From Acinetobacter phage vB_AbaSI_3: DNA of 64,000 bases. This document shows, one piece after another, positions 10,705 to 50,206 of the stretch (positions are counted from its first letter, which is position 1; the number at the start of each line of letters is the position of its first letter). The stretch lies in sequence record PQ382034.1. The stretch is one strand, 5' to 3'. Both the position numbers and the translations under genes were made by a program. Below the pieces are notes generated by a model. That model searched no databases, was not told where the DNA came from, and was given only the letters and a program-made list of their open reading frames with translations.

Positions 10705-10798
10705 GATAATTTCCTCAATTTGATTAATGATTTGATATGACTATTATAACAACAATGGCCCAAGATGTAAACATCCAAGGCCATATATTTTTGATTTT

Positions 10799-11804: not shown

Positions 11805-12126
11805 TTTGCTTCGCCCTTATTTTCAATACATCATGCAAAACGACTACTTCATTGTACTGGCTCAATGCAGATTCAGGAACATATACTTTAATAGGATCAT
11901 CTACGATTTCATTGACCATACGAGCATTATTGATCTTTTGTGATAGCGATTTGCTAAATTGATCAACCCATTGGTAAACACGAACACCCATGCTGATGCA
12001 TTGACTGTTATAATAAGATTCGCCTTTAAGTCTAATGATTGAGTCACGGACTTCTTCAATGTAATCGAGCAGTTGGACAGCTGCTTTAACTGTTAGTGCT
12101 ATATCAGGTTGCATATTAAAACTCAC
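11797..12126 (-). CDS. hypothetical protein
   Basis: 109 aa. Confidence 0.4.
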   Translation of the reverse strand: MSFNMQPDIALTVKAAVQLLDYIEEVRDSIIRLKGESYYNSQCISMGVRVYQWVDQFSKSLSQKINNARMVNEIVDDPIKVYVPESALSQYNEVVVLHDVLKIRAKQNG

Positions 12127-15969: not shown

Positions 15970-16153
15970 TTCGATGCTCCTTTTGTCATTGATGAACGTT
16001 CACAAAGATAGATAATTGCAAGAGTAGCAAAGAATGCCAAAATAAAAATTGAAAATGTCATATTAATTTACTCATTTAGTTGATAGGACTATAGTATCAA
16101 ACTATGCCTTAGATGTAAATAGCCTGTGTGATTAAATTTTGATCATGTAAATG

Positions 16154-16279
16154 TAAAGCACGCGTGCTTTACAAAATTTTGATGGTATAATGGTTCTACC
16201 GGTTCACCGCTCTAATTATATCTGCCGTTCGGTACAGAATAGCTGCTGCGCAGCCGGCGCACAGCGCCGAAATTAGATG
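16154..16279 (+). repeat. 126-bp GC-rich repeat element, copy 1 (inverted partner at 47533-47660); carries a palindromic TAAAGCAC..GTGCTTTA MotA-box-like motif plus an extended -10 TGgTATAAT
   Basis: The reverse complement of 47533-47660 matches 16154-16279 nearly perfectly. Only the centre of the palindrome differs (gc vs tcgt). Confidence 0.9.
16165..16191 (+). promoter_or_regulatory. middle-promoter-like motif inside repeat copy 1 (TGCTTTA N14 TATAAT), plus strand
   Basis: TGCTTTA at 16165-16171 and TATAAT at 16186-16191, preceded by TG (extended -10). Spacing is 14 nt where T4 middle promoters usually have about 12. Confidence 0.4.
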
Positions 16280-16334
16280 TTTTAATTGTTTAGTTGTTTT
16301 TGATATATCTCGACTGATATTTTTGGACAAAAAT

Positions 16335-16356
16335 AAAGGAGCCATTTGGCTCCTTT
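16335..16356 (-). terminator. intrinsic terminator hairpin after the macrodomain gene
   Basis: AAAGGAGCC-ATTT-GGCTCCTTT stem-loop. On the minus strand it is followed by TTTATTTTTG. Confidence 0.6.
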
Positions 16357-16358
16357 AG

Positions 16359-16802
16359 TTATATGTACAATACATAAATGTTCACGTCTGGCGTTACTTC
16401 GTTAATTATTTCTGCGATCTTCTCCCAGGTTCCACCTGCAATACCGGCGCCAATTTTAGGAATTCCTACTGATTTGCCGGCATATTTTTCATTGATTACA
16501 GTAAATGCCTTTCTGATGCTATCATATAAAACATGTTCAGGACATTTGCCAGGTCTGAATTGAGTATACGCATTAATGATGTCGCCGTTAACAATTTTGG
16601 CGATGCTCACATCGCCGAGCTTGCTCCAATCACCATATTCAGTTTTCTTGTCTGCTTCTAATGCAACAGGAAATGTCTTGCTAATAGAACCTGCAACTCC
16701 GGCTCCCATTGTATGGAAACAGTTGCAACCATGGGCTATCGCATCAAAATCATTATGTTGGAATGCTTCAAGCAAATCACAATATACATATTGCCTAATC
16801 AT
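16359..16802 (-). CDS. macrodomain protein, TARG1/DarG-like (ADP-ribose-removing hydrolase candidate)
   Basis: 147 aa. AIAHGCNC.HTMGAGVAG and VGIPKIGAGIAGG correspond to the TARG1/OARD1 signature blocks (HC.S.DCRMGAGIA and MPRIGCGLD). Confidence 0.8.
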   Translation of the reverse strand: MIRQYVYCDLLEAFQHNDFDAIAHGCNCFHTMGAGVAGSISKTFPVALEADKKTEYGDWSKLGDVSIAKIVNGDIINAYTQFRPGKCPEHVLYDSIRKAFTVINEKYAGKSVGIPKIGAGIAGGTWEKIAEIINEVTPDVNIYVLYI

Positions 16803-19545: not shown

Positions 19546-19661
19546 AATGTTTACTCAATGTAGATTAGATCTGATAGATGTATTATACTAAAATAAAAAG
19601 CATGTGTAAACAGTTTTACTAATTATTTTTACTACAATGGAGCCGTAAGGCTCCATTTTTG

Positions 19662-19868: not shown

Positions 19869-19894
19869 AACAATACTCTTGGTGAATTAGATTT

Positions 19895-19925
19895 GATAGA
19901 GCTATTATAATATAGCCCTATCATG
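19895..19925 (-). promoter_or_regulatory. T4-type early promoter within a palindrome (PeSL-like): GTTTACA N17 TATAAT on the minus strand
   Basis: Minus strand reads TGTTTACAtcatgatagggctatatTATAATagctctatc. The -10 sits inside the inverted repeat GATAGAGC...GCCCTATC. Confidence 0.6.
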
Positions 19926-19936
19926 ATGTAAACAGA

Positions 19937-20296
19937 TTATTTCATGAAATATGAAATAGTGTCCCCATCCACATAAACCGCTTCACCTTGGCTAGCGATA
20001 AAATCTTTTGCATCATCTAACCATTCAAATCCTTCTTGATTCATTACTTCTCTAATGAAGATTACTGAACCTGAAGATGAATATCTAACTACCATATAGT
20101 ACCAGCCTTTCTCATAGATTTCATCATTATCAACAACTCGGTACACTGCGAAGCCATCAAGATCACAAGTTTGATCAATGTTATATGAAATTTTATTAAC
20201 TGAGAAAGCTACAACCGATTGAATTTCAACGTTAGGAAACTCTGCACAAATTGCAGATTTAAGAGCAGAAATTGAAGGAGAAGTAAATTGTTTCAT
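19937..20296 (-). CDS. hypothetical protein
   Basis: 119 aa. Confidence 0.4.
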   Translation of the reverse strand: MKQFTSPSISALKSAICAEFPNVEIQSVVAFSVNKISYNIDQTCDLDGFAVYRVVDNDEIYEKGWYYMVVRYSSSGSVIFIREVMNQEGFEWLDDAKDFIASQGEAVYVDGDTISYFMK

Positions 20297-21056: not shown

Positions 21057-21094
21057 TGCTTTGTACCTTTATCCATATTTGATTTGATAAGACT

Positions 21095-21124
21095 ATTATA
21101 CCATAGCCTTATCACAATGTAAAC
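21095..21124 (-). promoter_or_regulatory. early promoter within a palindrome (PeSL-like)
   Basis: Minus strand reads GTTTACattgtgataaggctatggTATAATagtcttatc. The -10 sits inside the inverted repeat GATAAGAC/GCCTTATC. Confidence 0.55.
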
Positions 21125-21130
21125 TATTTT

Positions 21131-21484
21131 TTAATAAATTTTGAATGCTTCAGTGTTTTCGTGCAAATACTTGATTGCTTCTTCAAGAGTATCACAGATC
21201 CCGTCTTCATATGGTTCATCATCAATAGTAATATCCATTGTGCTTGTATCAACCGAAGAGCACCAAATAACATATTGCTGTGCATCTAAATTAGCATCAA
21301 AAAGCGAATAAACTGTTGCAATGCGAAGTTCCCAGCCATCTTGGCGGCCATTTTCTGTTAAAGGATTAGGCTTAGCAGAAAGAACAAATGTGTTTTTGTG
21401 GACGAAGTTACCATCAAGGATGTTAAAATCTGCAAGGAATTGATTGATAATCTGTTGTAAAGAAGGCAATTGGATGTTTAACAT
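21131..21484 (-). CDS. hypothetical protein
   Basis: 117 aa. Confidence 0.4.
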   Translation of the reverse strand: MLNIQLPSLQQIINQFLADFNILDGNFVHKNTFVLSAKPNPLTENGRQDGWELRIATVYSLFDANLDAQQYVIWCSSVDTSTMDITIDDEPYEDGICDTLEEAIKYLHENTEAFKIY

Positions 21485-21559
21485 GATATTTTCCTCAATT
21501 TCAAATAAAGATATTTTATTTGATAGAGCTATTGTATAATATCCTTAAAGCAAAGTAAA

Positions 21560-21991
21560 CTAAATTTTGAAATTATATTTGCTTTGGTACTCAACAATTA
21601 CTGAGTAGTGTCCTTTAGGGTTCAAATACGACAGTCGTTCACACTCTTCAATAGCTCGAATGTGATCATCAAAACTACCTCGTGTTTCATAGTCACCGCC
21701 ATAATAGTGTTCTACTACAACAAACTTGATATCTGAAAATACTTTAGGGCCTGGATCCGGTACTTCAGTAAAATAGATCATATGTTCAGGGCTAATAACA
21801 AGCCGTTTGTCTTGTTCAGGATTACGTCTGAAAGCAATGATCTCTCGATCTTGCAAATCCGTAATGGTACCATTGTCTTGAATTTTAATGTAAGGATTAT
21901 TTTTGATAAAGTGGTATTTGTAATTGTCATACACGTAGTTTTGTTGTGCTAAGTCATATAGCTCGGGATCAACTTTGTACCATTTAGCCAT
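21560..21991 (-). CDS. hypothetical protein (start trimmed to the ATG at 21991)
   Basis: GAGGAAA Shine-Dalgarno 7 nt upstream of MAKWYKV. The track start at 22051 is a weak TTG-type start. Confidence 0.45.
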   Translation of the reverse strand: MAKWYKVDPELYDLAQQNYVYDNYKYHFIKNNPYIKIQDNGTITDLQDREIIAFRRNPEQDKRLVISPEHMIYFTEVPDPGPKVFSDIKFVVVEHYYGGDYETRGSFDDHIRAIEECERLSYLNPKGHYSVIVEYQSKYNFKI

Positions 21992-26935: not shown

Positions 26936-26970
26936 GATGTTCTACTCACTGTAGTATATTTGATAGGACC

Positions 26971-27000
26971 ATTATATCAATAGTCCTATCAAAAGTAAAC
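26971..27000 (-). promoter_or_regulatory. early promoter within a 33-bp palindrome (PeSL-like)
   Basis: Minus strand reads GTTTACttttgataggactattgaTATAATggtcctatcaa. The palindrome is TTGATAGGAC..GTCCTATCAA. Confidence 0.55.
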
Positions 27001-27002
27001 AG

Positions 27003-27485
27003 TTATTTTTGCAATTGTTTGTATTTTTGTGCCATAGCAAGAGAAATAAATTTAGCCGACATTTCTGCTATTTCCTGATTTGTCTTACCTGCTTCAGATA
27101 GTTTTTCGTAGTTTGAGATGATGACATGAATCAAACCATGATCTGTCATTGTAAAGTCTTTAAGGAACTTTAATGCTTTAGCGGTATTTGCAGCCTCAAT
27201 AATATCGAGAGATGCTTTATGCCACATGTCAATAGTTGACTCATCACATGATAAGATTTTAGCGCGATCTGCCTCAAATGAAATTCGAGGATTTACATCA
27301 CTGTAATTGTACAGGTTTACCATGACCAGGTTATCATCAGTTCGATGCTCCGTGAAGTCAAGATATGAGATATCAGAATGGCTAATGATTTTATAGATGT
27401 CATTAGATTCAAACATATCAAACAGAGTTTTAGCGATTTCATCTATCGCTGCTTTAGATTCTTTAAAGGTACTTAATACGTCCAT
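27003..27485 (-). CDS. hypothetical protein
   Basis: 160 aa. Confidence 0.45.
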   Translation of the reverse strand: MDVLSTFKESKAAIDEIAKTLFDMFESNDIYKIISHSDISYLDFTEHRTDDNLVMVNLYNYSDVNPRISFEADRAKILSCDESTIDMWHKASLDIIEAANTAKALKFLKDFTMTDHGLIHVIISNYEKLSEAGKTNQEIAEMSAKFISLAMAQKYKQLQK

Positions 27486-31506: not shown

Positions 31507-31580
31507 GTTAGTTCCGATAAGTTATTTGATAGAGCTATTATACCACAAAAGGGAACCAGTGTAAACTGATTCCCTTAACT

Positions 31581-31736
31581 TTAAACTAAATTAAAGTGAC
31601 GAACGAGATGTTCAATAACAATGTACCATGATACTGGCGGAATAAAGATCGACGCAGCGGTCCACCAAAACCCTTTAGCTAAAACAATACCAGTGATGTA
31701 CACTGCAAATGCAACAAGGCCAACTAATGCTCTCAT
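31581..31736 (-). CDS. small membrane protein (51 aa)
   Basis: The track ORF 31581-31898 overlaps the upstream gene in another frame. The internal ATG at 31736 has a GAGGT Shine-Dalgarno and lies 8 nt past the upstream stop. Two predicted TM helices. Confidence 0.3.
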   Translation of the reverse strand: MRALVGLVAFAVYITGIVLAKGFWWTAASIFIPPVSWYIVIEHLVRHFNLV

Positions 31737-33249: not shown

Positions 33250-33482
33250 GACTCCGAGCTATTATACCATGTGATTTCAGTTGTGCCATGACTTTGAGTG
33301 ATGTCAAAATTCATGAAGTGTAACTCATGTTCTTCGATAATTTCGCCTACATGTTCAGCTAGTGTACGAACAGTGGCAAGAATTTCTTTTACACGAATTT
33401 CTGCAGTGAGCCGAGCTAAACGTTTAGCCTCTTTTTCATCTTCACGACGTTGCTTGACAACTAATGCGCCTTGTTTACTCAT
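33243..33482 (-). CDS. hypothetical protein
   Basis: 79 aa. Confidence 0.35.
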   Translation of the reverse strand: MSKQGALVVKQRREDEKEAKRLARLTAEIRVKEILATVRTLAEHVGEIIEEHELHFMNFDITQSHGTTEITWYNSSESC

Positions 33483-35794: not shown

Positions 35795-36913
35795 TTACTC
35801 CAATAATGCCTTTTCCCACATCGCGTACACACGAGATGGATTGTATTGTTCATATAATGCATTAGCACGTGCAACACGTTGTTCATATGTGTCTTCGAAC
35901 TCATTTAATGCTTTAGAATATGCGGCAATAATATCATTAGTTGACATACCTTCTTCAATCCAAACAACTTTAGTTAATGGATCATGTTCAAGTGTTGCAT
36001 GGCTATAACCACGTTTGATGAGTTGAAGTACAGGCACACCTTTCTCAATAGCTTCCAATGAACCGTGTTCAATAGTGCCTGTGTCATGACAAGTGTTAAC
36101 AAGGACTAGCGCTTCGGCTAATGTTGCCTGGATAGTTGCACGCGGAACATCAATATGTACAAAAGGCTCTTTGAGATATTTCTTAGGTGGTGCCCATTGA
36201 CTTGGCAGGAATGCAGCAATTTTATGATGAGATTTACTCATTGCTTCTAAAGCTACATTTGTCTTTCTGAATTTCAAATCATAGCGCTGTGCTGAAACTA
36301 CAACACCATTAGAAGGCAGCACTTTAGGGCGATTTTCGATTAATGTAGCCGGGAAGAAATTATCTGAGATGATGTCATGCTCTTGCCAATAATCAAAATC
36401 AATTGCACCTTTAGCAACTTTGATATTCATTTTTGAATACACTTGTGCTGTAAGGTCTTTAAATGTTTGAGTTGGCACAAGATTCTTGCCGCCATTTTGG
36501 TGAATAAAAACAGCAGTACGCCAAATTGAAACAAGTGTTCGAATACTAGGATCGAGTGGCGTTGCTAAAAGGTTTCGAATTTTAGGTCCTAACCCGAGTT
36601 TGATCAAGCCATTGATAACACCTTTTGCACCTTCAACAGTAACAACTACATCATATTTTGAATGGTCCAATTGTGAAATTTTGTCAATGATTTTGTTACC
36701 GTGTTTGATAGTGTACTTGTCTACAATTGGGTAGTCAATAGATATTGCATTGACTTTATATGGGCCAAAGTTTTCATCACCGAACGCCATGTAATCGATT
36801 TCATGGTGCTTACTCATTGTTTTGATGAAATTCAATTGAACTGATTCTAAGCCACCAGAAATATAATCAGCATTAAAAGTAATAAATCGACATGGAATGT
36901 ATAAAATTTTCAT
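35795..36913 (-). CDS. GT-B fold glycosyltransferase, paralog 1 (candidate hmC-DNA glycosyltransferase)
   Basis: 372 aa. C-terminal E...G.PV-type motif (NTCHDTGTIEHGSLEAIEKGVPVLQL). About 45% identical to the neighbouring paralog. Located between genes 41 and 42, where T4 has beta-gt. Confidence 0.7.
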   Translation of the reverse strand: MKILYIPCRFITFNADYISGGLESVQLNFIKTMSKHHEIDYMAFGDENFGPYKVNAISIDYPIVDKYTIKHGNKIIDKISQLDHSKYDVVVTVEGAKGVINGLIKLGLGPKIRNLLATPLDPSIRTLVSIWRTAVFIHQNGGKNLVPTQTFKDLTAQVYSKMNIKVAKGAIDFDYWQEHDIISDNFFPATLIENRPKVLPSNGVVVSAQRYDLKFRKTNVALEAMSKSHHKIAAFLPSQWAPPKKYLKEPFVHIDVPRATIQATLAEALVLVNTCHDTGTIEHGSLEAIEKGVPVLQLIKRGYSHATLEHDPLTKVVWIEEGMSTNDIIAAYSKALNEFEDTYEQRVARANALYEQYNPSRVYAMWEKALLE

Positions 36914-36972: not shown

Positions 36973-38094
36973 TTATTTTAAAACATTTTCCCAGAGTTTG
37001 AAATATGCTTCTTCGTTAAATTTGTTGTAAAGATATTCAGCCCGAGCAACACGTTGTTCATATGTATCTTCAAACTCATTTAATGCTTTAGCATACATCT
37101 CGATTAATTCTTGAGTACTTGTGCCTTCTTCAAATTCAACTCGAACAGTATTAGGGTCGTACTCAAATGTAGCATGGTTGTATCCTTTTTGAATGAGTTG
37201 AAGTACTGGCGTACCTTGAGAAATAGCTTCAAGCGATCCATTTTCTACTGTACCAGTGTTGTGGCACGTATTGACAAGAAGTTTGGCAGTTGAAATTTCT
37301 TTTTGTATGGTTTGGCGTTTGGCATCGATAATGACCCAGTGATCTTTCTCCAGCCATTTTTTGCCAGGTGCCCATTTCGATGGACAGAATGCGATCTTAG
37401 GCCCATCAAATAAATCCATTGCACCGAATGCAACATTAGATTTTCTGAATGCATTGTCAAACCGTTGGGCTTGTACAATATGCCCTTCAGAATGAAGGAC
37501 TTCAGGTTTATTTGCAATCAAAATCGGCGGATAAAATTCATCTGCAATAATATCATGCTTTTGCCAATAATCAAAATCAATGACTTCTGCAGCAATACGT
37601 TCATTCATTTTAGAATAAACCTTTGCAGCTAAATCTTTAAATGTTTGAGTAGGAACGATATTCTTTCCGCCAAGTTTATGGACCATTACTGCATTGTTCC
37701 AGCATTGTACGATACCACGAACTGATGGGTCAAGTGGAGTAGCAAGAATATTACGAACCTTTGAAATTTGTCCGAGCTCTGCTAATGTATTAAGAACCAT
37801 TTTACTGCCTTCAATGATCACAATAGCATCGTACTGGTCCCAGTCTGTGATTTCTTGAAGTTTGTACTTGATTTTATATGCATGTGCGGTAGTGAACTTT
37901 GCGCCAATAGGTTTATCAATTGATAATTCGTTAACTTTAACACTGCCGAAGTTTTCGTCGCCAAATGAAACGTAATCGATATCATGCACTTTTGACAAGT
38001 TGACAATAAAATTATACTGAACCGCTTCAAGACCGCCAGCAACACGATCAATATCAAATGGCACTGAACGGCAAGGTAAGTATAAAATTTTCAT
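36973..38094 (-). CDS. GT-B fold glycosyltransferase, paralog 2
   Basis: Start trimmed to the ATG at 38094 (GGAG Shine-Dalgarno, 1 nt after the upstream TAA). It then begins MKILYLPCR like paralog 1 (MKILYIPCR). Motif NTCHNTGTVENGSLEAISQGTPVLQL. Confidence 0.7.
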   Translation of the reverse strand: MKILYLPCRSVPFDIDRVAGGLEAVQYNFIVNLSKVHDIDYVSFGDENFGSVKVNELSIDKPIGAKFTTAHAYKIKYKLQEITDWDQYDAIVIIEGSKMVLNTLAELGQISKVRNILATPLDPSVRGIVQCWNNAVMVHKLGGKNIVPTQTFKDLAAKVYSKMNERIAAEVIDFDYWQKHDIIADEFYPPILIANKPEVLHSEGHIVQAQRFDNAFRKSNVAFGAMDLFDGPKIAFCPSKWAPGKKWLEKDHWVIIDAKRQTIQKEISTAKLLVNTCHNTGTVENGSLEAISQGTPVLQLIQKGYNHATFEYDPNTVRVEFEEGTSTQELIEMYAKALNEFEDTYEQRVARAEYLYNKFNEEAYFKLWENVLK

Positions 38095-44875: not shown

Positions 44876-45175
44876 TTAACCGAAACGCCTTGTAAGATGT
44901 TCAACCATATTGTCTGCAATAGATGCAGCTGATGAAGAAACTCCATCGCATCCACGAAGGACACCGCTATTTGGCAGATATGCCAATGCACAAGCCTTCC
45001 AGAATTCACGCTTCTCTAATTCTGTGATTGCGGGAATAGGTGTACTAAAAAGCTGGTATTCGCGAGCTTCATCTACCGATACAGTAGTTTTACATTTAGT
45101 ACAACGAACTTTAGGTGGACTACTTAGCAATACTGCGTCGAAATTAAATTCATGATTGCATAATAAACTGTTCAT
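44876..45175 (-). CDS. hypothetical protein with zinc-ribbon-like Cys pairs
   Basis: 99 aa. CNH...CTKC, and C..C-like spacing near the C-terminus. Confidence 0.4.
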   Translation of the reverse strand: MNSLLCNHEFNFDAVLLSSPPKVRCTKCKTTVSVDEAREYQLFSTPIPAITELEKREFWKACALAYLPNSGVLRGCDGVSSSAASIADNMVEHLTRRFG

Positions 45176-45208
45176 AACTTACCTCTAGAGGGCATAGAGC
45201 CCTCGGTT

Positions 45209-46381
45209 TTAAAAGTCAAATAAATCTTCTAATGAAGAACGTTTTTCTGCTTGCATACCTGCAGATTCACACATACCTTCCAAAGGTTTCTTATATGTTT
45301 TTGTAAACAATGACATAACGTCAACATGTTTTAAAACATCTTCACGAATTTCTTTAGGAAGTTCGTTGCCTGATGGCCATGCAATAACTTTGTCGCCAAA
45401 TGGATTTCCAGGTTTCAAAGGCAAGATCATAACTTTATCACCTTCACTAATATCCGGTAAGTTATCGAATGCCTTAATTGCACGTCGATACGTCAAAACA
45501 CCACGAATATGACTAGGACATTTCAATCCAGGGAAGCCATTATCATCATATTTTGCAATGTTATTTGCAGTTCTTACACCTGCAATAACTTTGTAATCAA
45601 GATTTCTAAATTCATTTTCAAATTTCTTGAAATAGTCTTGAAGTGGCTTTTCACCTTCTTGAAGCATGATTCGAATACTTTCTAATAATGCATCTTTAAC
45701 CGCTTTAGGTGTAGATGATTGTTGAGTTTCCATGCCCATGATTTTCAAGTATGGCTCTTTAAAACGAGTACCTTCCATGTCATACACATTTAATGCATAA
45801 CGTTTCTTAGCTCGCCAGAATCCGCCGATGCCGTTAGAACCAAGTGGTGGGCATGCAATAGCTTCACGATCCATGAACATTAATTGCTCATAGTTGTTAA
45901 GATATTCGCACAGTTCTTGGAAGCCTGCATTAATAACCGGTTCGATTTTCTTTGAACCTACTGCATCCAAGAAGTCAACTAATTTTTCAGTTGATGCAAA
46001 TTTTTCAATGCCAACTTTATCAATGAGTGGACTCAATTCAATATACAATGAATCTGTATCACCATAAATTACATACGGATGATTAGTTGTTCCACACATT
46101 TCATTAAGGTATGCATTAATTTTTCGTTCTGTCCATTGAAGGACCAATTGTCCGAAAATAGTAATCGCTTCTGCATTACGAAGATCGTAAAATCTAAAGT
46201 AGATATTGCCGAGTGCCCCATATAATGAGTTAATGAGCAACTTCCGATTAATTTGATTCGTATCACACAAAACAATATAATTTTCACATTCATGCTCAAG
46301 TTCAAGCAATTCTTCTTGTGAAAGTGTTTTGAGATATTCGATTTCGGATTCAGTTAAGTCACGACTAAAATCTAATTTCAT
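45209..46381 (-). CDS. 43: DNA polymerase gp43, C-terminal cistron (43B: fingers/motif B, motif C, thumb)
   Basis: 390 aa. Colinear with T4 gp43 residues about 520-898: NRKLLINSLYGALGN (motif B), YGDTDS (motif C), MDREAI, PLGS.G.GGFW.AKKRYALNVYDME, KIMGMETQQSSTPKAV, and C-terminal SLEDLFDF. Confidence 0.92.
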   Translation of the reverse strand: MKLDFSRDLTESEIEYLKTLSQEELLELEHECENYIVLCDTNQINRKLLINSLYGALGNIYFRFYDLRNAEAITIFGQLVLQWTERKINAYLNEMCGTTNHPYVIYGDTDSLYIELSPLIDKVGIEKFASTEKLVDFLDAVGSKKIEPVINAGFQELCEYLNNYEQLMFMDREAIACPPLGSNGIGGFWRAKKRYALNVYDMEGTRFKEPYLKIMGMETQQSSTPKAVKDALLESIRIMLQEGEKPLQDYFKKFENEFRNLDYKVIAGVRTANNIAKYDDNGFPGLKCPSHIRGVLTYRRAIKAFDNLPDISEGDKVMILPLKPGNPFGDKVIAWPSGNELPKEIREDVLKHVDVMSLFTKTYKKPLEGMCESAGMQAEKRSSLEDLFDF

Positions 46382-46677
46382 ATAAACTCCAAATTGATGG
46401 GATTATTCTATAACATCATAATCAACTGACACTATAGCTTTAATTGTTAGTTCCTTTGAACAGGATTCGCAATTGACTTTGAATTCTTCATCAGCATGTC
46501 TCCAATGCTCAAAGTAATCAGACGTGTCAAGTTCAGAATTGCAGTGTGGGCAGTATATTTCAAACATTTCTGTGCCTCAAAAGGGATATGACAATTATAT
46601 CATATCCCTTATCAAAAGCTTAACTATAATTCAGATTGTATAATGTAATACGAATCACTTTAGGCGTACGTTTATAT

Positions 46678-46896
46678 TCAAAACATCGCATTGATAACTT
46701 CGGTGCCGGCAATTACAGGATTTTTAAACATGATACAACCTGTAACAAATCCGGCTAAAAACAACACCGGAATACAGATTAATAGGGCTACAAAAACTCG
46801 ATACCACAAGCTAACGTATTCACCAATTGATTCACAATTTTCATTTGCTACTTTAATTTGTTCGAAGATATTCATAGGCCTAACTCCCACAGGCAT
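46678..46896 (-). CDS. hypothetical membrane protein (inside the gene 43 insertion)
   Basis: 72 aa with one or two TM helices. Confidence 0.35.
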   Translation of the reverse strand: MPVGVRPMNIFEQIKVANENCESIGEYVSLWYRVFVALLICIPVLFLAGFVTGCIMFKNPVIAGTEVINAMF

Positions 46897-47189
46897 TGGT
46901 TTAATAACTGATTGATTGAACGTTCGTTATGTATAGATTCATTAAGAAGCTGAGCTATAACACGATAATCTGTTTCACTATTGCATCGAGCGTTAAGAAT
47001 TGTTTGTGCATTTGTGCGACACATATCAAACGTTTTGAAGAAACTGTCATAACGAGGCAAACGAATTGCATTTAACACATTAGGTTTCCAAACAACATTG
47101 AACTTGCCATTGACTTCATCAATAAAGAACAACATAGTTTCAATAGATTGAGTATATGTGTACTCTTCGGCCGATGTATAAACTCTCAT
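46872..47189 (-). CDS. hypothetical protein (inside the gene 43 insertion)
   Basis: 105 aa. Confidence 0.4.
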   Translation of the reverse strand: MRVYTSAEEYTYTQSIETMLFFIDEVNGKFNVVWKPNVLNAIRLPRYDSFFKTFDMCRTNAQTILNARCNSETDYRVIAQLLNESIHNERSINQLLNQCLWELGL

Positions 47190-47500
47190 CGACTTACCTC
47201 CATATCAAAATCTACAAATTTAGCTCTACATTCCTGATAGACACTATGCATTAAATCTAACACTCCATAATTGAATTGAGAATTTTCTGATTTCCCAAGC
47301 AGAGCTCGGGAGCGTGCCGCTATTTCTGAATTTATAAATTCTAGAACTTCTTTACCTTGTGGATATCGTAGCATCTTAGGCACGAATTGTGCGTCAATAG
47401 TAATATTACATCTGCCTCTTAACACAGTAGCTATAAATGGATAATATTCTATCCAATGCTCGCCTGTCGAGCTTGATATTACTCTATTTTGTCCATACAT
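47186..47500 (-). CDS. hypothetical protein (inside the gene 43 insertion); start trimmed to the ATG at 47500
   Basis: The track start is TTG at 47530. The ATG at 47500 has a GAGGT Shine-Dalgarno. It lies directly downstream of the promoter face of repeat copy 2. Confidence 0.4.
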   Translation of the reverse strand: MYGQNRVISSSTGEHWIEYYPFIATVLRGRCNITIDAQFVPKMLRYPQGKEVLEFINSEIAARSRALLGKSENSQFNYGVLDLMHSVYQECRAKFVDFDMEVSR

Positions 47501-47532
47501 AATAACCTCGTAATATATCAAATTAATCAAAT

Positions 47533-47660
47533 CATCTAATTTCGGCGCTGTGCGCCGGCTGCGCAGCAGCTATTCTGTACCGAACGGCAGATATAATTAG
47601 AGCGGTGAACCGGTAGAACCATTATACCATCAAAATTTTGTAAAGCACTCGTGTGCTTTA
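47533..47660 (-). repeat. 126-bp GC-rich repeat element, copy 2 (inverted relative to copy 1 at 16154-16279)
   Basis: Reverse complement equals copy 1 except at the palindrome centre. Here the TGCTTTA N14 TATAAT motif faces leftward into the ORF at 47186-47500. Confidence 0.9.
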
Positions 47661-47695
47661 TGAATATAGATCATTTTATGAACACTCAAACCAAA

Positions 47696-47923
47696 TCATA
47701 ACAATTCTTGGATTCTTCTAGATTTATACTGCATAAGTTCGGTACGTGTCATTCCTGAAGTGTCCTGTTCACACTGCGTGTTAACTGTTTTAATCATAAT
47801 GAGGGTATTATGATTTATATTATCTATAGGAAGTTGTCGCCGGTGTGTGTCTGGCGTAACTATTCTGCATGGATATTGCTTTGCGATATCTCTAATACTT
47901 TCATAATATTGCTTAAGTGGCAT
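47696..47923 (-). CDS. hypothetical protein (inside the gene 43 insertion)
   Basis: 75 aa. Confidence 0.35.
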   Translation of the reverse strand: MPLKQYYESIRDIAKQYPCRIVTPDTHRRQLPIDNINHNTLIMIKTVNTQCEQDTSGMTRTELMQYKSRRIQELL

Positions 47924-47994
47924 ATCAAATCTCCATAGATTTTAGAATAATTATATCATAATCAAAAAGCAAAGTAAATATTTTAGACAAAAAT

Positions 47995-48016
47995 AAAGGA
48001 CCCATTTGGGTCCTTT
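47995..48016 (-). terminator. terminator hairpin, structural homolog of the hairpin at 16335-16356
   Basis: AAAGGACCC-ATTT-GGGTCCTTT. It has the same flanks (gacaaaaataAAGG...CCTTTag) as the 16335 copy, with compensatory stem changes. Confidence 0.55.
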
Positions 48017-48029
48017 AGATAAAATGAAA

Positions 48030-48386
48030 TTATACAACGCTATACATTGTAACCGCAATAGGTAGAATTTCATTTGTCAATGTATTAAGACTGCCTCCAG
48101 TGATAGGAGTACCTTGGAAACGATGAACGATACGTTCAATTTCAACAACTTTTCGTTTATTAGTTTCTCGATCACGTGGATCAATTACCAATTTGATATT
48201 ATCATCTTTAAATTCCAGTGCAAGGATCCCAAGAGTAATTTTTGCATCTAACGAACGTGTAGAACGAGTATCAATTACTGGAGCTGCTGTGTTAAATTGT
48301 AATTTAGATTGCTGGATCATAATATCTCTACGTACTTTGTAAGTTGATAGGATTATTATATCAATAACCCTATCACATGTAAACAA
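48030..48386 (-). CDS. hypothetical protein (inside the gene 43 insertion)
   Basis: 118 aa. The start may be the internal Met (MIQQSKL...). Confidence 0.4.
   Translation of the reverse strand: MFTCDRVIDIIILSTYKVRRDIMIQQSKLQFNTAAPVIDTRSTRSLDAKITLGILALEFKDDNIKLVIDPRDRETNKRKVVEIERIVHRFQGTPITGGSLNTLTNEILPIAVTMYSVV
48355..48384 (-). promoter_or_regulatory. early promoter within a palindrome (PeSL-like)
   Basis: Minus strand reads GTTTACatgtgatagggttattgaTATAATaatcctatc. The palindrome is GATAGGAT..ACCCTATC. Confidence 0.55.
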
Positions 48387-48387
48387 A

Positions 48388-49896
48388 TTATTTCATTAAT
48401 TTTTTAATCACTTCGGCATTACGTTTTGCAGCCATCATTTTCTTCTTCCATTCTTTACGTTGGAAGAACACTTTAGTAATTTCTTGTGGAATGATACCTT
48501 GCTTTGTCTTCGAATACATCATACCACTTGGCGAGCATGAGAATTCATTTGAAGGGCTCGGCGCAATCTTATTAATGAAATCGCTAAGTTTAGGCGGCGC
48601 AAATTGTCCTGCAATTGTTTCTGGGCTAATGTTTACTTGGCGAATGATTGACGGATACAGAGATGTTACGTCAAACGACAAAACATATTTGTACGCACCA
48701 GGCACAGGGTTTTTAACATATGCGCCTTCATACGGTTGTCGAACATTTGGCTTAGCTTCCGGTAAAACTAAGTGCTCGGCTTTTAATGAGTTGAAGATAA
48801 TTGCATCCCAAGTTTTCACAGGACTCATTACTGTTGCAATATTCATTCGAGCGTAATAGCCCATTGAAATTGACAGGTTGATAAATCCACGTTTTGCGTC
48901 AATTGCTTGTACACAGTACACATCGACAATGTTATATGAAATATAACGCTGGTGGTTTGATTCACGTAATTTGTCGATTGGACCGTCATATTCTAATTTG
49001 TTGATGCCGGCTTCATATTCTGCAATATAATCGAGTTTATATGATGGCTGTGAAGTAAACGCAAACTTTTTATATAAATCCATGTAATCGAGAATCATGA
49101 TTCCAGAAATATTGAAAATTTCTTTATCTCCATACATGTTTTGAATGACTTTTGACGTTACTTTACCAAAAGGACTTAAACGTTTCATGTTCGAGACACC
49201 AAGAACGTTTTTGATACGATTTACAATATATGGAATATCAAATCCTTCAACGTTCCAACCGGTGAAGATGACAGGAGTTTTTTCTTCCCATAAACGAATG
49301 TATTCTAACAGCATTTCCTTTTCTGTTTCGAATGGCATATACACAACTTTATCTAAAATATGTTGTGGAACTTCATCGCCGCCTTCATCAATTGATTTGC
49401 CTGCAAGAACCGGATCCCACTTTGAAACACGTCCACGTTGAGAGTTCAACAAGTCAAACACGTAGTATTTGTCATCAATAGAATCATAGTGTGTAATTGC
49501 ATCAATTTCATATTTTGCAAAGGTCGGATTCGGGAACTCTCCTGCTGTTACCTCGATGTCACAGTTTGCAACACGAATTGCATTTCTGCTATATGTGATG
49601 TCCTTTTTTCCATACACATCAGAAATATATGCAAGTTTGAAGTCATCCATACCTAAAATTTCTACAATTCCACGTGTCTTTTGCATCCAGTCTTTAGCTT
49701 CACGAATGGAGCTAAAACGTTTAGGAATACATGGCTTGCCATAAATGTCTTTATATTTTGATTCAACGCCTTCTTTGGCATGAATGAACAGTGTAGGCTC
49801 ATATGGAATTTCACGAACTTTTTCGACGCCATTTTCCACATAACGCTCTTGAATAAGGTCGCCAGATTGTTCAACTACTAGATAGAAATTATCCAC
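48388..49896 (-). CDS. 43: DNA polymerase gp43, N-terminal cistron (43A: N-terminal domain, 3'-5' exonuclease, palm motif A)
   Basis: 502 aa. Colinear with T4 gp43 residues 1 to about 520: LGMDDFKLAYISD.YG, VANCDIEVT (Exo I), ITHYDSIDD.YYVFDLLNS, IFTGWN.EGFD.PY (Exo II), RYISYNI.DV (Exo III), FDVTSLYPSIIRQVNISPETI (motif A). It ends before motif B. Confidence 0.92.
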   Translation of the reverse strand: MDNFYLVVEQSGDLIQERYVENGVEKVREIPYEPTLFIHAKEGVESKYKDIYGKPCIPKRFSSIREAKDWMQKTRGIVEILGMDDFKLAYISDVYGKKDITYSRNAIRVANCDIEVTAGEFPNPTFAKYEIDAITHYDSIDDKYYVFDLLNSQRGRVSKWDPVLAGKSIDEGGDEVPQHILDKVVYMPFETEKEMLLEYIRLWEEKTPVIFTGWNVEGFDIPYIVNRIKNVLGVSNMKRLSPFGKVTSKVIQNMYGDKEIFNISGIMILDYMDLYKKFAFTSQPSYKLDYIAEYEAGINKLEYDGPIDKLRESNHQRYISYNIVDVYCVQAIDAKRGFINLSISMGYYARMNIATVMSPVKTWDAIIFNSLKAEHLVLPEAKPNVRQPYEGAYVKNPVPGAYKYVLSFDVTSLYPSIIRQVNISPETIAGQFAPPKLSDFINKIAPSPSNEFSCSPSGMMYSKTKQGIIPQEITKVFFQRKEWKKKMMAAKRNAEVIKKLMK

Positions 49897-49939
49897 GTTA
49901 TCTCCTTGGTAGGGTATTTTGTATCATTATAACACCACA

Positions 49940-49966
49940 AAAGAGGAAGCTAACTCCCTCTTTTAT
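49940..49966 (-). terminator. hairpin upstream of gene 43A / downstream of the preceding gene
   Basis: AAAGAGGAAG-ctaa-CTCCCTCTTTT, an imperfect stem. Confidence 0.35.
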
Positions 49967-49972
49967 TTTAAA

Positions 49973-50206
49973 TTACTTAGATTCAACAACTGTAGTCTTT
50001 GTCATTTCTTCGCGAGGTATCCAAGTGTTCTTGCCAGTTTTGACATAACATCCGGTGATAAAACTATATTTGGTTTGACGACCTGTAATAGATTCATAAC
50101 TGTTACATTTAACATAACCACTTACCGTATTGTATGTTAAGCCTACTACAACAATAACACAGACGATAATAACAGAGAATACGAGTTCAGTTAAATTATT
50201 ACTCAT
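49973..50206 (-). CDS. hypothetical membrane protein
   Basis: 77 aa with an N-terminal TM helix. Confidence 0.4.
   Translation of the reverse strand: MSNNLTELVFSVIIVCVIVVVGLTYNTVSGYVKCNSYESITGRQTKYSFITGCYVKTGKNTWIPREEMTKTTVVESK

Follow-up and report, generated by a model that had tools for sequence, protein, structure and literature searches.

Several described systems resemble parts of the locus reported here. Composite terminator-promoter cassettes, designated PeSL and PmSL, are known from T4-type phages (PMC2839356; PMC4122927). The T4 origins oriF and oriG each consist of a MotA-dependent middle promoter and a downstream unwinding element (PMC3016281; PMC2988021), and oriF is driven by the promoter PuvsY (PMC3016281). 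T4 gene 43, encoding the DNA polymerase, has a middle promoter of its own, P43 (PMC2988021), and the gene 43 operator of T4 and RB69 is one hairpin with a UAAC loop, located about 40 nt ahead of the AUG, to which gp43 binds (PMC3014915). A gene 43 that is split into 43A and 43B is reported for the Aeromonas phages 44RR and 25 (Petrov et al. 2010, summarized in PMC2988022).

The locus under consideration is a repeat, copy 2, within the split polymerase gene of Acinetobacter phage vB_AbaSI_3. The window, i.e., the whole stretch of DNA analyzed, comprises 64,000 nucleotides of record PQ382034.1, a T4-like Acinetobacter phage of the genus Lazarusvirus. We consider it probable, at roughly 70%, that copy 2 is a resident member of an old Twarogvirinae family of promoter-leader cassettes and that it restarts transcription towards 43B. 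Each cassette is built from an upstream A/T-GATC motif, a stem-loop with a MotA-type 3' arm, an extended -10, a nearly invariant start region of ~25 nt, and a variable hairpin part. This reading offers an explanation for the expression of the second half of a split replicative polymerase from behind a terminator, in a phage group that includes many therapy candidates against A. baumannii.

The split polymerase gene and its gene cluster

Positions 46300-48500 are 98-99% identical to MD-2021a, PhaR5, phi1_092060, KARL-1, and about 35 other phages, the records of which annotate a "split DNA polymerase" at the site; the genes around it lie on the minus strand. Matches to PHROG 262 on either side of a 2-kb insertion (46382-48387) confirmed that polB is split, at about position 496 of PHROG 262, and that copy 2 lies inside the split gene, as the preliminary description of this DNA had stated. 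The insertion holds six small ORFs, i1 to i6, arranged as follows.

48388-49896, minus strand: polB part 43A, PHROG 262 positions 6-495
48030-48386, minus strand: ORF i1, PHROG 21960, with an early-type promoter (48383->48355) before it
47923->47696, minus strand: ORF i2, behind the early-type promoter TTTACT-17-TATAAT (47978->47950)
47186-47500, minus strand: ORF i3, 104 aa, first gene behind the predicted copy 2 promoter, with GAGG 6 nt before its ATG
46872-47189, minus strand: ORF i4, same orientation as i3
46678-46896, minus strand: ORF i5, same orientation as i3
46403-46567, minus strand: ORF i6, zinc-ribbon-like, same orientation as i3
45209-46381, minus strand: gene 43B, C-terminal half of the PolB polymerase, PHROG 262 positions 498-852

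All six ORFs are present in KARL-1, i1 to i5 in AbTZA1 (Hadassahvirus), and i1, i4, and i5 in Acj9 (Acajnonavirus), the annotation of which names the polymerase halves 43A and 43B. ORFs i4 and i5 are thus kept as far out as Acj9; for i3, identity is 100% in KARL-1 and conservation in AbTZA1 is weak. Since the cluster is common to Hadassahvirus and Acj9, it must be old, and the polymerase split appears to be an old, stable arrangement rather than a recent invasion. No endonuclease domain was found in the gene 43 insertion with Pfam or PHROG.

Copy 2 and its inverted partner

In a blastn comparison of 16000-16500 with 47300-48200, one inverted match was obtained, between 16154-16287 (plus strand) and 47660-47525 (minus strand), with 131 of 136 positions identical. 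These two copies, copy 1 and copy 2, share 114 consecutive identical bases, the sole gap being 2 nt in the loop of the upstream palindrome, and a repeat search extended the match to 142 nt at 94%. Identity of this extent cannot have arisen by chance. The parts of copy 2 are listed below in their order on the minus strand, followed by copy 1.

47669-47680, minus strand: upstream A/T-rich GATC motif AAAATGATC, from an alignment of the upstream regions of 17 family members (family consensus TTAAAAWTTGATCAT, about 45-70 nt before the -10)
47641-47660, minus strand: palindromic stem-loop TAAAGCAC-ACGA-GTGCTTTA, the 3' arm of which is the MotA-type box TGCTTTA (47647->47641)
47621-47629, minus strand: extended -10 TGGTATAAT, 14 nt past the MotA-type box
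47597-47620, minus strand: conserved start region GGTTCTACCGGTTCACCGCTCTAA, predicted to hold the discriminator, the start site, and the first transcribed bases
47574-47591, minus strand: short hairpin UCUG-CCGUUCGGUA-CAGA, which replaces the GGUCGGAG hairpin of short family members
47558-47570, minus strand: GC hairpin GCUGC-UGC-GCAGC with a 3-nt loop
47543-47557, minus strand: GC hairpin CGGCGC-ACA-GCGCCG with a 3-nt loop, adjoining the hairpin at 47558-47570
47501-47542, minus strand: A/U-rich tail of the leader, containing the motifs UUAGAUG and UGAUAUAU as well as the Shine-Dalgarno sequence GAGG (47509->47506)
16154-16287, plus strand: copy 1, a long cassette and an orphan, aimed at a tk.4-like phosphatase gene, with no ORF behind it

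The string TGCTTTA-N14-TGGTATAAT does face the ORF at 47186-47500 on the minus strand, as previously proposed. A transcript start is predicted near A47614, which would give a leader of about 114 nt before ORF i3. The copy 2 palindrome (47641-47660) has the position that characterizes a PmSL stem-loop, directly ahead of the promoter or overlapping it. Copy 1 stands back to back with an early srd promoter and has a palindrome in the like position (16154-16171); the stretch 16152-16173, the equivalent of the copy 2 palindrome, was flagged as terminator-like.

Terminators beside the copies

A likeness between the hairpins near the two copies (16335-16356 and 47995-48016) had been noted earlier and is borne out here: 16321-16361 and 47981-48021 match at 37 of 41 nt, flanks included, with one compensated stem change. 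It had also been proposed that repeat and hairpin moved into the polymerase gene together as an inverted unit and that the hairpin ends the insertion. The hairpin match is direct (plus/plus) and the match between the copies is inverted; copy 1 has its hairpin 33 nt downstream, whereas that of copy 2 is 321 nt upstream, on the far side of ORF 47696-47923. Had the copy 1 unit been inverted, the hairpin would be expected near 47460, on the other strand. Because the hairpins are direct, the element is inverted, and the two lie in a different order at the two sites, repeat and hairpin do not form one inverted unit. Nor is the hairpin the end of the insertion, which continues past it up to 48387; it lies behind the first of the inserted ORFs (48030-48386).

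Both hairpins have a T-run on the minus strand and are placed behind minus-strand genes (the phosphatase gene, 16359-16802, and i1). Bidirectional terminators of the type AAAGGnnCC-loop-GGnnCCTTT occur at at least 8 sites in KARL-1 and at 6 in AbTZA1; three of the KARL-1 sites have a stem identical to that at 16335-16356, and a fourth has the same flank, TTTAATTTTGTCTAAA. Since such sites recur within each of these genomes, both hairpins are generic terminators, an outcome that the preliminary description had itself named as refuting its proposal. They are as follows.

47994-48017, minus strand: intrinsic terminator behind ORF i1, the sole minus-strand terminator-like site in 45100-50000
16334-16357, both strands: bidirectional terminator of the phosphatase gene 16359-16802, which would end the copy 1 transcript at about 150 nt

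A transposable element or MITE was also considered and rejected. The two ends of the similarity, TAAAGCAC... and ...GATATAT, do not form inverted repeats, no duplication of the flanks is seen, and no empty sites were found, the loci being occupied in all genera examined. The idea of a recent transposition into the polymerase gene likewise did not survive comparison of the 43A-43B junction in relatives: AbTZA1 has both loci and the gene cluster, and Acj9 has most of them.

A family of five cassettes

A search of KARL-1 with the element revealed five family loci, and AbTZA1 has the same five in the same orientations. With an nhmmer profile, exactly five matches at E < 1e-20 were obtained in each of these two genomes; the next ones (E > 0.05) are ordinary early promoters. 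The family loci are as follows.

Locus 1, between gene 34 and rnh: faces rnh
Locus 2, directly after gp25
Locus 3, between gp2 and gp3: antisense, orphan
Locus 4, in the polymerase insertion: copy 2
Locus 5, between the phosphatase gene and srd, upstream of srd: antisense, orphan, copy 1

The extended -10 and a start region, GGTTCTAC(C)GGTTCACCGCTCTAA, recur in all five cassettes. The five Lazarusvirus paralogues do not differ from one another in this start region, and three Hadassahvirus copies lack one C. The promoter type is TGCTTTA 14 nt upstream at four loci and GTTTACA-17-TATAAT in the rnh copies. A start region that is held constant under two promoter types points to a constraint in or around the transcript start. 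Conservation is maximal over the first 55 transcribed nt, with 76-93% identity among orthologues and 85-90% among paralogues, compared to 45-75% in the flanks; such strong conservation of the start region is not explained by promoter function alone. Furthermore, two of the five copies lack a gene to drive, and service as a promoter for downstream genes is therefore not the whole function of the family.

Both GC hairpins are found only in the polymerase and srd copies in Lazarusvirus, and their distribution differs in AbTZA1. In the second GC hairpin, both long copies of the window have the loop ACA; KARL-1 and Kimel have TGT in each of their two long copies, AbTZA1 has TTC in each of its two, and the srd copy of Bhz15 also has TTC. 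The loop is thus the same within a genome and varies among genomes, which indicates that the copies evolve in concert, being converted against each other. The identity of the copy 1 and copy 2 leaders has evidently been maintained by gene conversion between inverted copies and not by transposition, as judged from these sequence patterns.

Acj9 has diverged members at four of the five loci. These members combine two types of start with two types of downstream part in mosaic fashion, and two loci have tandem pairs. At the polymerase site of Acj9 the promoter is degenerate; it shares the TAAAGCAC palindrome (TAAAGCACTGGATGCTATCC...CATTATAATAGTTCTGATG) and has only a short leader. The copy 2 promoter is therefore old, and the long GC-rich leader at the polymerase site is a later product of conversion, not an insertion.

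On the 166-kb KARL-1 circle, the cassettes are separated by 32.4, 39.0, 32.0, 29.7, and 33.3 kb. Spacing this even has a probability of 1.3e-4 by the minimum gap and 1.4e-4 by the variance, each a post hoc statistic. The spacing is similar in AbTZA1 and Acj9, which is not independent evidence because synteny is conserved. Taken together, the cassettes appear to be a small, sharply bounded class of prereplicative promoters with a conserved transcribed start and fixed positions.

Kinship with T4 promoters

T4 has homologous promoters at three of the five loci. For the gp25 copy, the positional homologue is PuvsY, which reads ATGCTTCA-N13-TGGTATAAT-GAATCTAAGTCCATCC, compared to TGGTATAATGGTTCTACCGGTTCACC in the gp25 copy; the T4 record places the oriF rep_origin at 115321. 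A diverged member (TATAATTGGTTCACCAGGTTCC...GGCGGGGAAGATAG) lies downstream of gp25 and immediately before uvsY in an Ac42-like genome, and enteric T4-like phages have TATAATGGGTCTATGGGTT ahead of uvsY. Two further T4 promoters have the PuvsY start region (TGGTATAAT-GRRTCTAAGTCCnTYCCA).

-10 at 75988, plus strand: promoter in the spacer of T4 gene 3 and gene 2, antisense to its neighbors
-10 at 11885, plus strand: promoter in the spacer of T4 srd and modA, antisense to its neighbors

Both sit at the loci, and in the sense, of the orphan members of the Acinetobacter phages, and both are absent from the 2010 table of about 60 identified middle promoters (PMC2988021). Two other complete T4-like genomes each have three occurrences of the same -10 and start region pattern. 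A dRNA-seq preprint reports 150 start sites for T4, of which 22 are antisense. The rnh copy lies on the gene 34 side of rnh and faces it, as does T4 P34i, which lies inside gene 34 and is directed towards rnh. The MotA-type box is 14 nt from the -10 here and 12-13 nt in the T4 relatives by the same count; the published rule for T4 is 12 ± 1 (PMC2988021). The phages studied here encode MotA and AsiA, and the MotA dependence of their cassettes is a prediction.

Conservation of the orphan antisense members extends from T4 to the Acinetobacter phages. With T4 oriF as one of its members, the family offers a handle on the specification of T4 origins beyond oriF and oriG and on the possible production of functional antisense or non-coding RNAs by T4-like phages.

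Structure and coding potential of the leader

The preliminary description envisaged a GC-rich, structured 5' leader. The GC-rich part would indeed lie in the leader, but the copy 2 leader (47500-47625) folds no better than shuffled sequences (z = -0.53). For the first 60 nt of the family, RNAalifold returned essentially no consensus structure (-1 kcal/mol, 3 pairs), from few independent sequences. Two hand-drawn helices, UUCACCG/CGGAGAA and AUCU/AGAU, were rejected as mutually exclusive and as resting on too few independent sequences. The GC stems are invariant, and only their loops flip (ACA/TGT; UGC/GCA), as palindromes would; being invariant, the stems carry no information for or against a role as RNA.

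Searches with Rfam 15 gave no match at the gathering score in the whole window and only chance-level matches (E >= 0.26) in 47400-47750, and ARAGORN detected no tRNA or tmRNA. A micro-ORF of 28 codons (ATGGTTCTACCGG...) was discarded, because a 1-nt C deletion shifts its frame in three AbTZA1 copies and its ATG falls within the -10. The 20/21-mer core was not found in bacteria or archaea (one genome per species, 185,579 species). Host origin or mimicry was rejected as well, the core being absent from these genomes and its lone metagenome match (L016), in a GC-rich coding region, being a chance match. The TTAGATG motifs were not accepted as iterons, since the 7-mer occurs about 70 times in KARL-1 and is hence unspecific.

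Proposed role and alternatives

Transcripts from 43A and i1 would stop at 47994-48017. Transcription would restart at the early promoter 47978->47950; in the middle period it would also restart from copy 2, the MotA-type promoter of which has its predicted start near 47614. The copy 2 transcript would then cross i3 to i6 into 43B, supplying the second polymerase subunit. No terminator was found on the minus strand between copy 2 and 43B (45100-50000), and copy 2 is the last promoter before i3 to i6 and 43B and the sole MotA-type one there, which together argue for a middle-period restart serving the second subunit. The early promoter 47978->47950 alone could feed 43B, unless the palindrome at 47641-47660 terminates its transcripts. 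For the role of the leader, a protective 5' structure and R-loop formation are our two top-ranked candidates.

It is possible, though we would not favor it, that the five cassettes act as replication origins or as R-loop primer promoters, in the manner of T4 oriF/oriG, with copy 2 as an origin in the polymerase cluster. The prereplicative transcript would stay hybridized downstream and prime the leading strand, with the GC hairpins of the displaced strand holding the loop open. An equally tentative history goes with this mechanism: the cassettes would descend from a PuvsY/oriF ancestor copied to evenly spaced sites, their likeness kept by gene conversion. Homology of the gp25 copy to PuvsY/oriF in both position and sequence is consistent with such a role, as is the parallel of the rnh copy to P34i/oriG on the gene 34 side, an approximate positional homology. 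Two copies are orphan and antisense, and so serve no mRNA, and T4 has PuvsY-like antisense promoters in the srd-modA and gene 3-gene 2 spacers, where family members lie here; on this account these would be two overlooked T4 members. The near-even spacing would also fit, but its statistic is post hoc and the genomes are not independent. Short members have ~50% GC for 25 nt and then 25-35% GC, like oriG. An unwinding element would be expected within about 50-100 bp downstream, and the short members do fall to 12-35% GC; long copies, however, stay at ~50% GC for 85 nt (45-52% over the first 100 nt) with no A+T-rich unwinding element next to the start. The annotated T4 origins oriA (16763) and oriE (79355) lie 3-5 kb away from the srd-modA and gene 3-gene 2 promoters, copy 2 has no positional homology to a T4 origin, T4 gene 43 being unsplit, and the T4 origins are reported to have no common motif, with R-loop formation there independent of sequence (PMC3016281). 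GC/AT skew was rejected as an origin signal, since it follows only the direction of genes and transcription.

The evident conversion between copies and the mosaic Acj9 members would also suit stretches for recombination, PeSL/PmSL-like, that serve module shuffling or conversion and have the conserved leader as a by-product; PmSLs with a stem-loop, a Mot box, and a -10 are described in phage nt-1 (PMC4122927), and the palindrome ahead of the promoter scores as terminator-like. We regard this as rather unlikely, since there are only five copies, at fixed loci across genera and not beside indels, and conversion leaves unexplained why the start region is identical between genera in which the promoter spacer has diverged; moreover, a crossover between the inverted long copies would invert 31 kb. 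Copy 1 combines, in 150 nt that hold no ORF, a promoter with a conserved 5' part, hairpins, and a terminator, which would suit a gene for a short non-coding or antisense RNA. It is doubtful, however, that the cassettes as a class are such genes, with a common 5' sequence and acting on phage or host targets or silencing the opposed genes: three of the five run directly into genes, and there is neither an Rfam family nor covariation. Equally doubtful is the corollary that the orphan copies give free RNAs, of ~150 nt from copy 1 and directed against gene 2 from the gp2-gp3 copy. The antisense orientation is kept from T4 to the Acinetobacter phages at two loci, and such a family could have been missed, since no T4 trans-acting RNA had been characterized by 2010 (PMC3014915); the fold of copy 1 with its terminator does have z = -3.2, but that score is owed mainly to the terminator hairpin. 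Least probable, and in our view improbable outright, is the earlier suggestion of a translational operator or riboregulator for ORF 47186-47500 that arrived by transposition or recombination of the inverted repeat with its hairpin. The leader does stand before that ORF, its minimum-energy fold pairs AUAUAUUACGAGG (with the Shine-Dalgarno sequence) to CUCUAAUUAUAU of the conserved start, and T4 regulates gene 43 through a leader hairpin (PMC3014915). Against this, that fold is no more stable than those of shuffled sequences and RNAalifold found no consensus in the family, no ORF follows the same leader in copy 1, and the five loci that have the conserved part of the leader in common differ in what lies downstream. 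The loops here, ACA and UGC, flip freely, and that of the T4 gp43 operator is UAAC. The proposed arrival fares no better, given the differing orientation and order of a hairpin that is a generic terminator, the occupation of both loci in three genera, and the lack of terminal inverted repeats and target duplications.

Comparison with known systems

The split gene resembles that of phages 44RR and 25 in that a PolB gene is cut by inserted DNA into two cistrons, the products of which must assemble into a single enzyme. In those phages the inserted DNA is a short spacer that is not translated, to which a homing endonuclease gene and an intron may be added; unlike it, the insert here is 2 kb long and contains six small ORFs, two early-type promoters, a terminator, and a cassette. 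As in the T4 gene 43 operator, leader hairpins lie upstream of a polymerase cistron, but those of copy 2 have ACA and UGC loops and stand before an unrelated small ORF, 1.1 kb upstream of 43B.

Some likeness exists to the boxA elements of lambda nut and rrn, since several copies lie just downstream of early promoters with a hairpin following, and the start region of Lazarusvirus and Hadassahvirus contains CGCUCUAA, compared to CGCUCUUA in the lambda boxA. These phages are not known to have an N-like factor. The boxA likeness was rejected as a family feature because CGCUCUAA is absent from the Acj9 and Ac42-like members.

With T4 oriF and oriG the cassettes have in common a MotA-type promoter with TGGTATAAT, the gp25 copy corresponding to PuvsY and the rnh copy to P34i. 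The members here share sequence, whereas the T4 origins reportedly share little; copy 2 has GC hairpins rather than an A+T-rich unwinding element, and the polymerase locus has no T4 counterpart.

In build the cassettes resemble the PmSLs, which are also repeated intergenic modules of T4-like genomes in which a stem-loop is followed by a promoter with a TGCTT Mot box and a -10, and the copies of which recombine. PeSLs, however, are many, lie in hyperplastic regions, and mark indels, and the cassettes here are five, fixed, and syntenic. In addition, the 3' arm of the stem doubles as the MotA-type box, conservation is greatest over 25-55 nt of transcribed sequence, and two copies face no gene. 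The cassettes thus appear PmSL-like in build and distinct in their number, their fixed positions, their conserved transcribed start, and their kinship with T4 oriF.

Family members around the genome

The five promoter-leader cassettes of the family lie at 33305, 65744, 104702, 136697 and 166422 in KARL-1, and the same loci are occupied in AbTZA1 and Acj9. Their spacing around the genome is nearly even, with gaps of 29.7 to 39.0 kb (P ~1e-4, calculated post hoc). In Acj9, the gp2-gp3 and gp25-uvsY.-2 spacers (85572-85730 and 122900-123070) each hold two tandem members that differ in start type.

The linearization points of the public KARL-1 and AbTZA1 records fall within a family member. About 116 bp of it are present at both ends of the KARL-1 record (1-126 and 166437-166560), and the AbTZA1 record starts inside one; these ends probably represent an assembly break at the inverted repeat.

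Hairpins

Hairpin loops of close relatives are often mutual reverse complements (ATTT/AAAT, ACA/TGT, GCA/TGC) on unchanged stems, as in the following comparisons.

Window 16335-16356, against KARL-1 166369
Window 47543-47557, against KARL-1
gp2-gp3 distal hairpins, KARL-1 and AbTZA1

This pattern suggests loop inversion, which would proceed through template switching at palindromes. The 3' end of gene 2 carries tandem GC hairpins with GCA/TGC loops, whose stems show compensatory changes between genera (CAGTGC/GCACTG versus TTGTGC/GCACAA).

KARL-1 104540-104600, tandem GC hairpins
AbTZA1 ~135960-136030, tandem GC hairpins
Acj9 ~85800-85840, tandem GC hairpins

Surroundings in the window

At 16091-16171, copy 1, the family member at the srd locus, stands back to back with the early srd promoter (16119->16091). 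Since its MotA-type box is palindromic, the box could additionally serve a leftward promoter. At the polymerase insertion, positions 46300-46573, which contain the zinc-ribbon-like ORF i6 directly before 43B (the C-terminal polymerase half), find no match in some 20 genomes of Lazarusvirus, among them DP45, Lazarus and AM101; the 43B-side end of the insertion is variable. Elsewhere, two direct-repeat pairs (74 to 77% identity, ~1175 bp between partners) point to two tandem paralogous genes.

35864-35958 and 37039-37133, pair 1
36425-36515 and 37603-37693, pair 2

Comparison with T4-type promoters

T4 (NC_000866) has two MotA-box/TGGTATAAT promoters with the same start region as PuvsY, which drives oriF. 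Both are antisense, all adjoining genes running opposite, and neither is listed among the identified middle promoters of T4 tabulated in 2010.

-10 at 11885-11890, plus strand, srd-modA spacer
-10 at 75988-75993, plus strand, gene 3-gene 2 spacer

An early-promoter family, GTTTAC-17-TATAAT, has nine copies in the window.

Early-promoter copies, all on the minus strand
2448-2515
10723-10790
19562-19629
19884-19951
21075-21142
21511-21578
26951-27018
31517-31584
48335-48402

In several of them a stem-loop, GATAGnnCC...GGnnCTATC, encloses the -10, and these therefore resemble PeSL, the stem-loop and early-promoter cassettes of T4-type phages.
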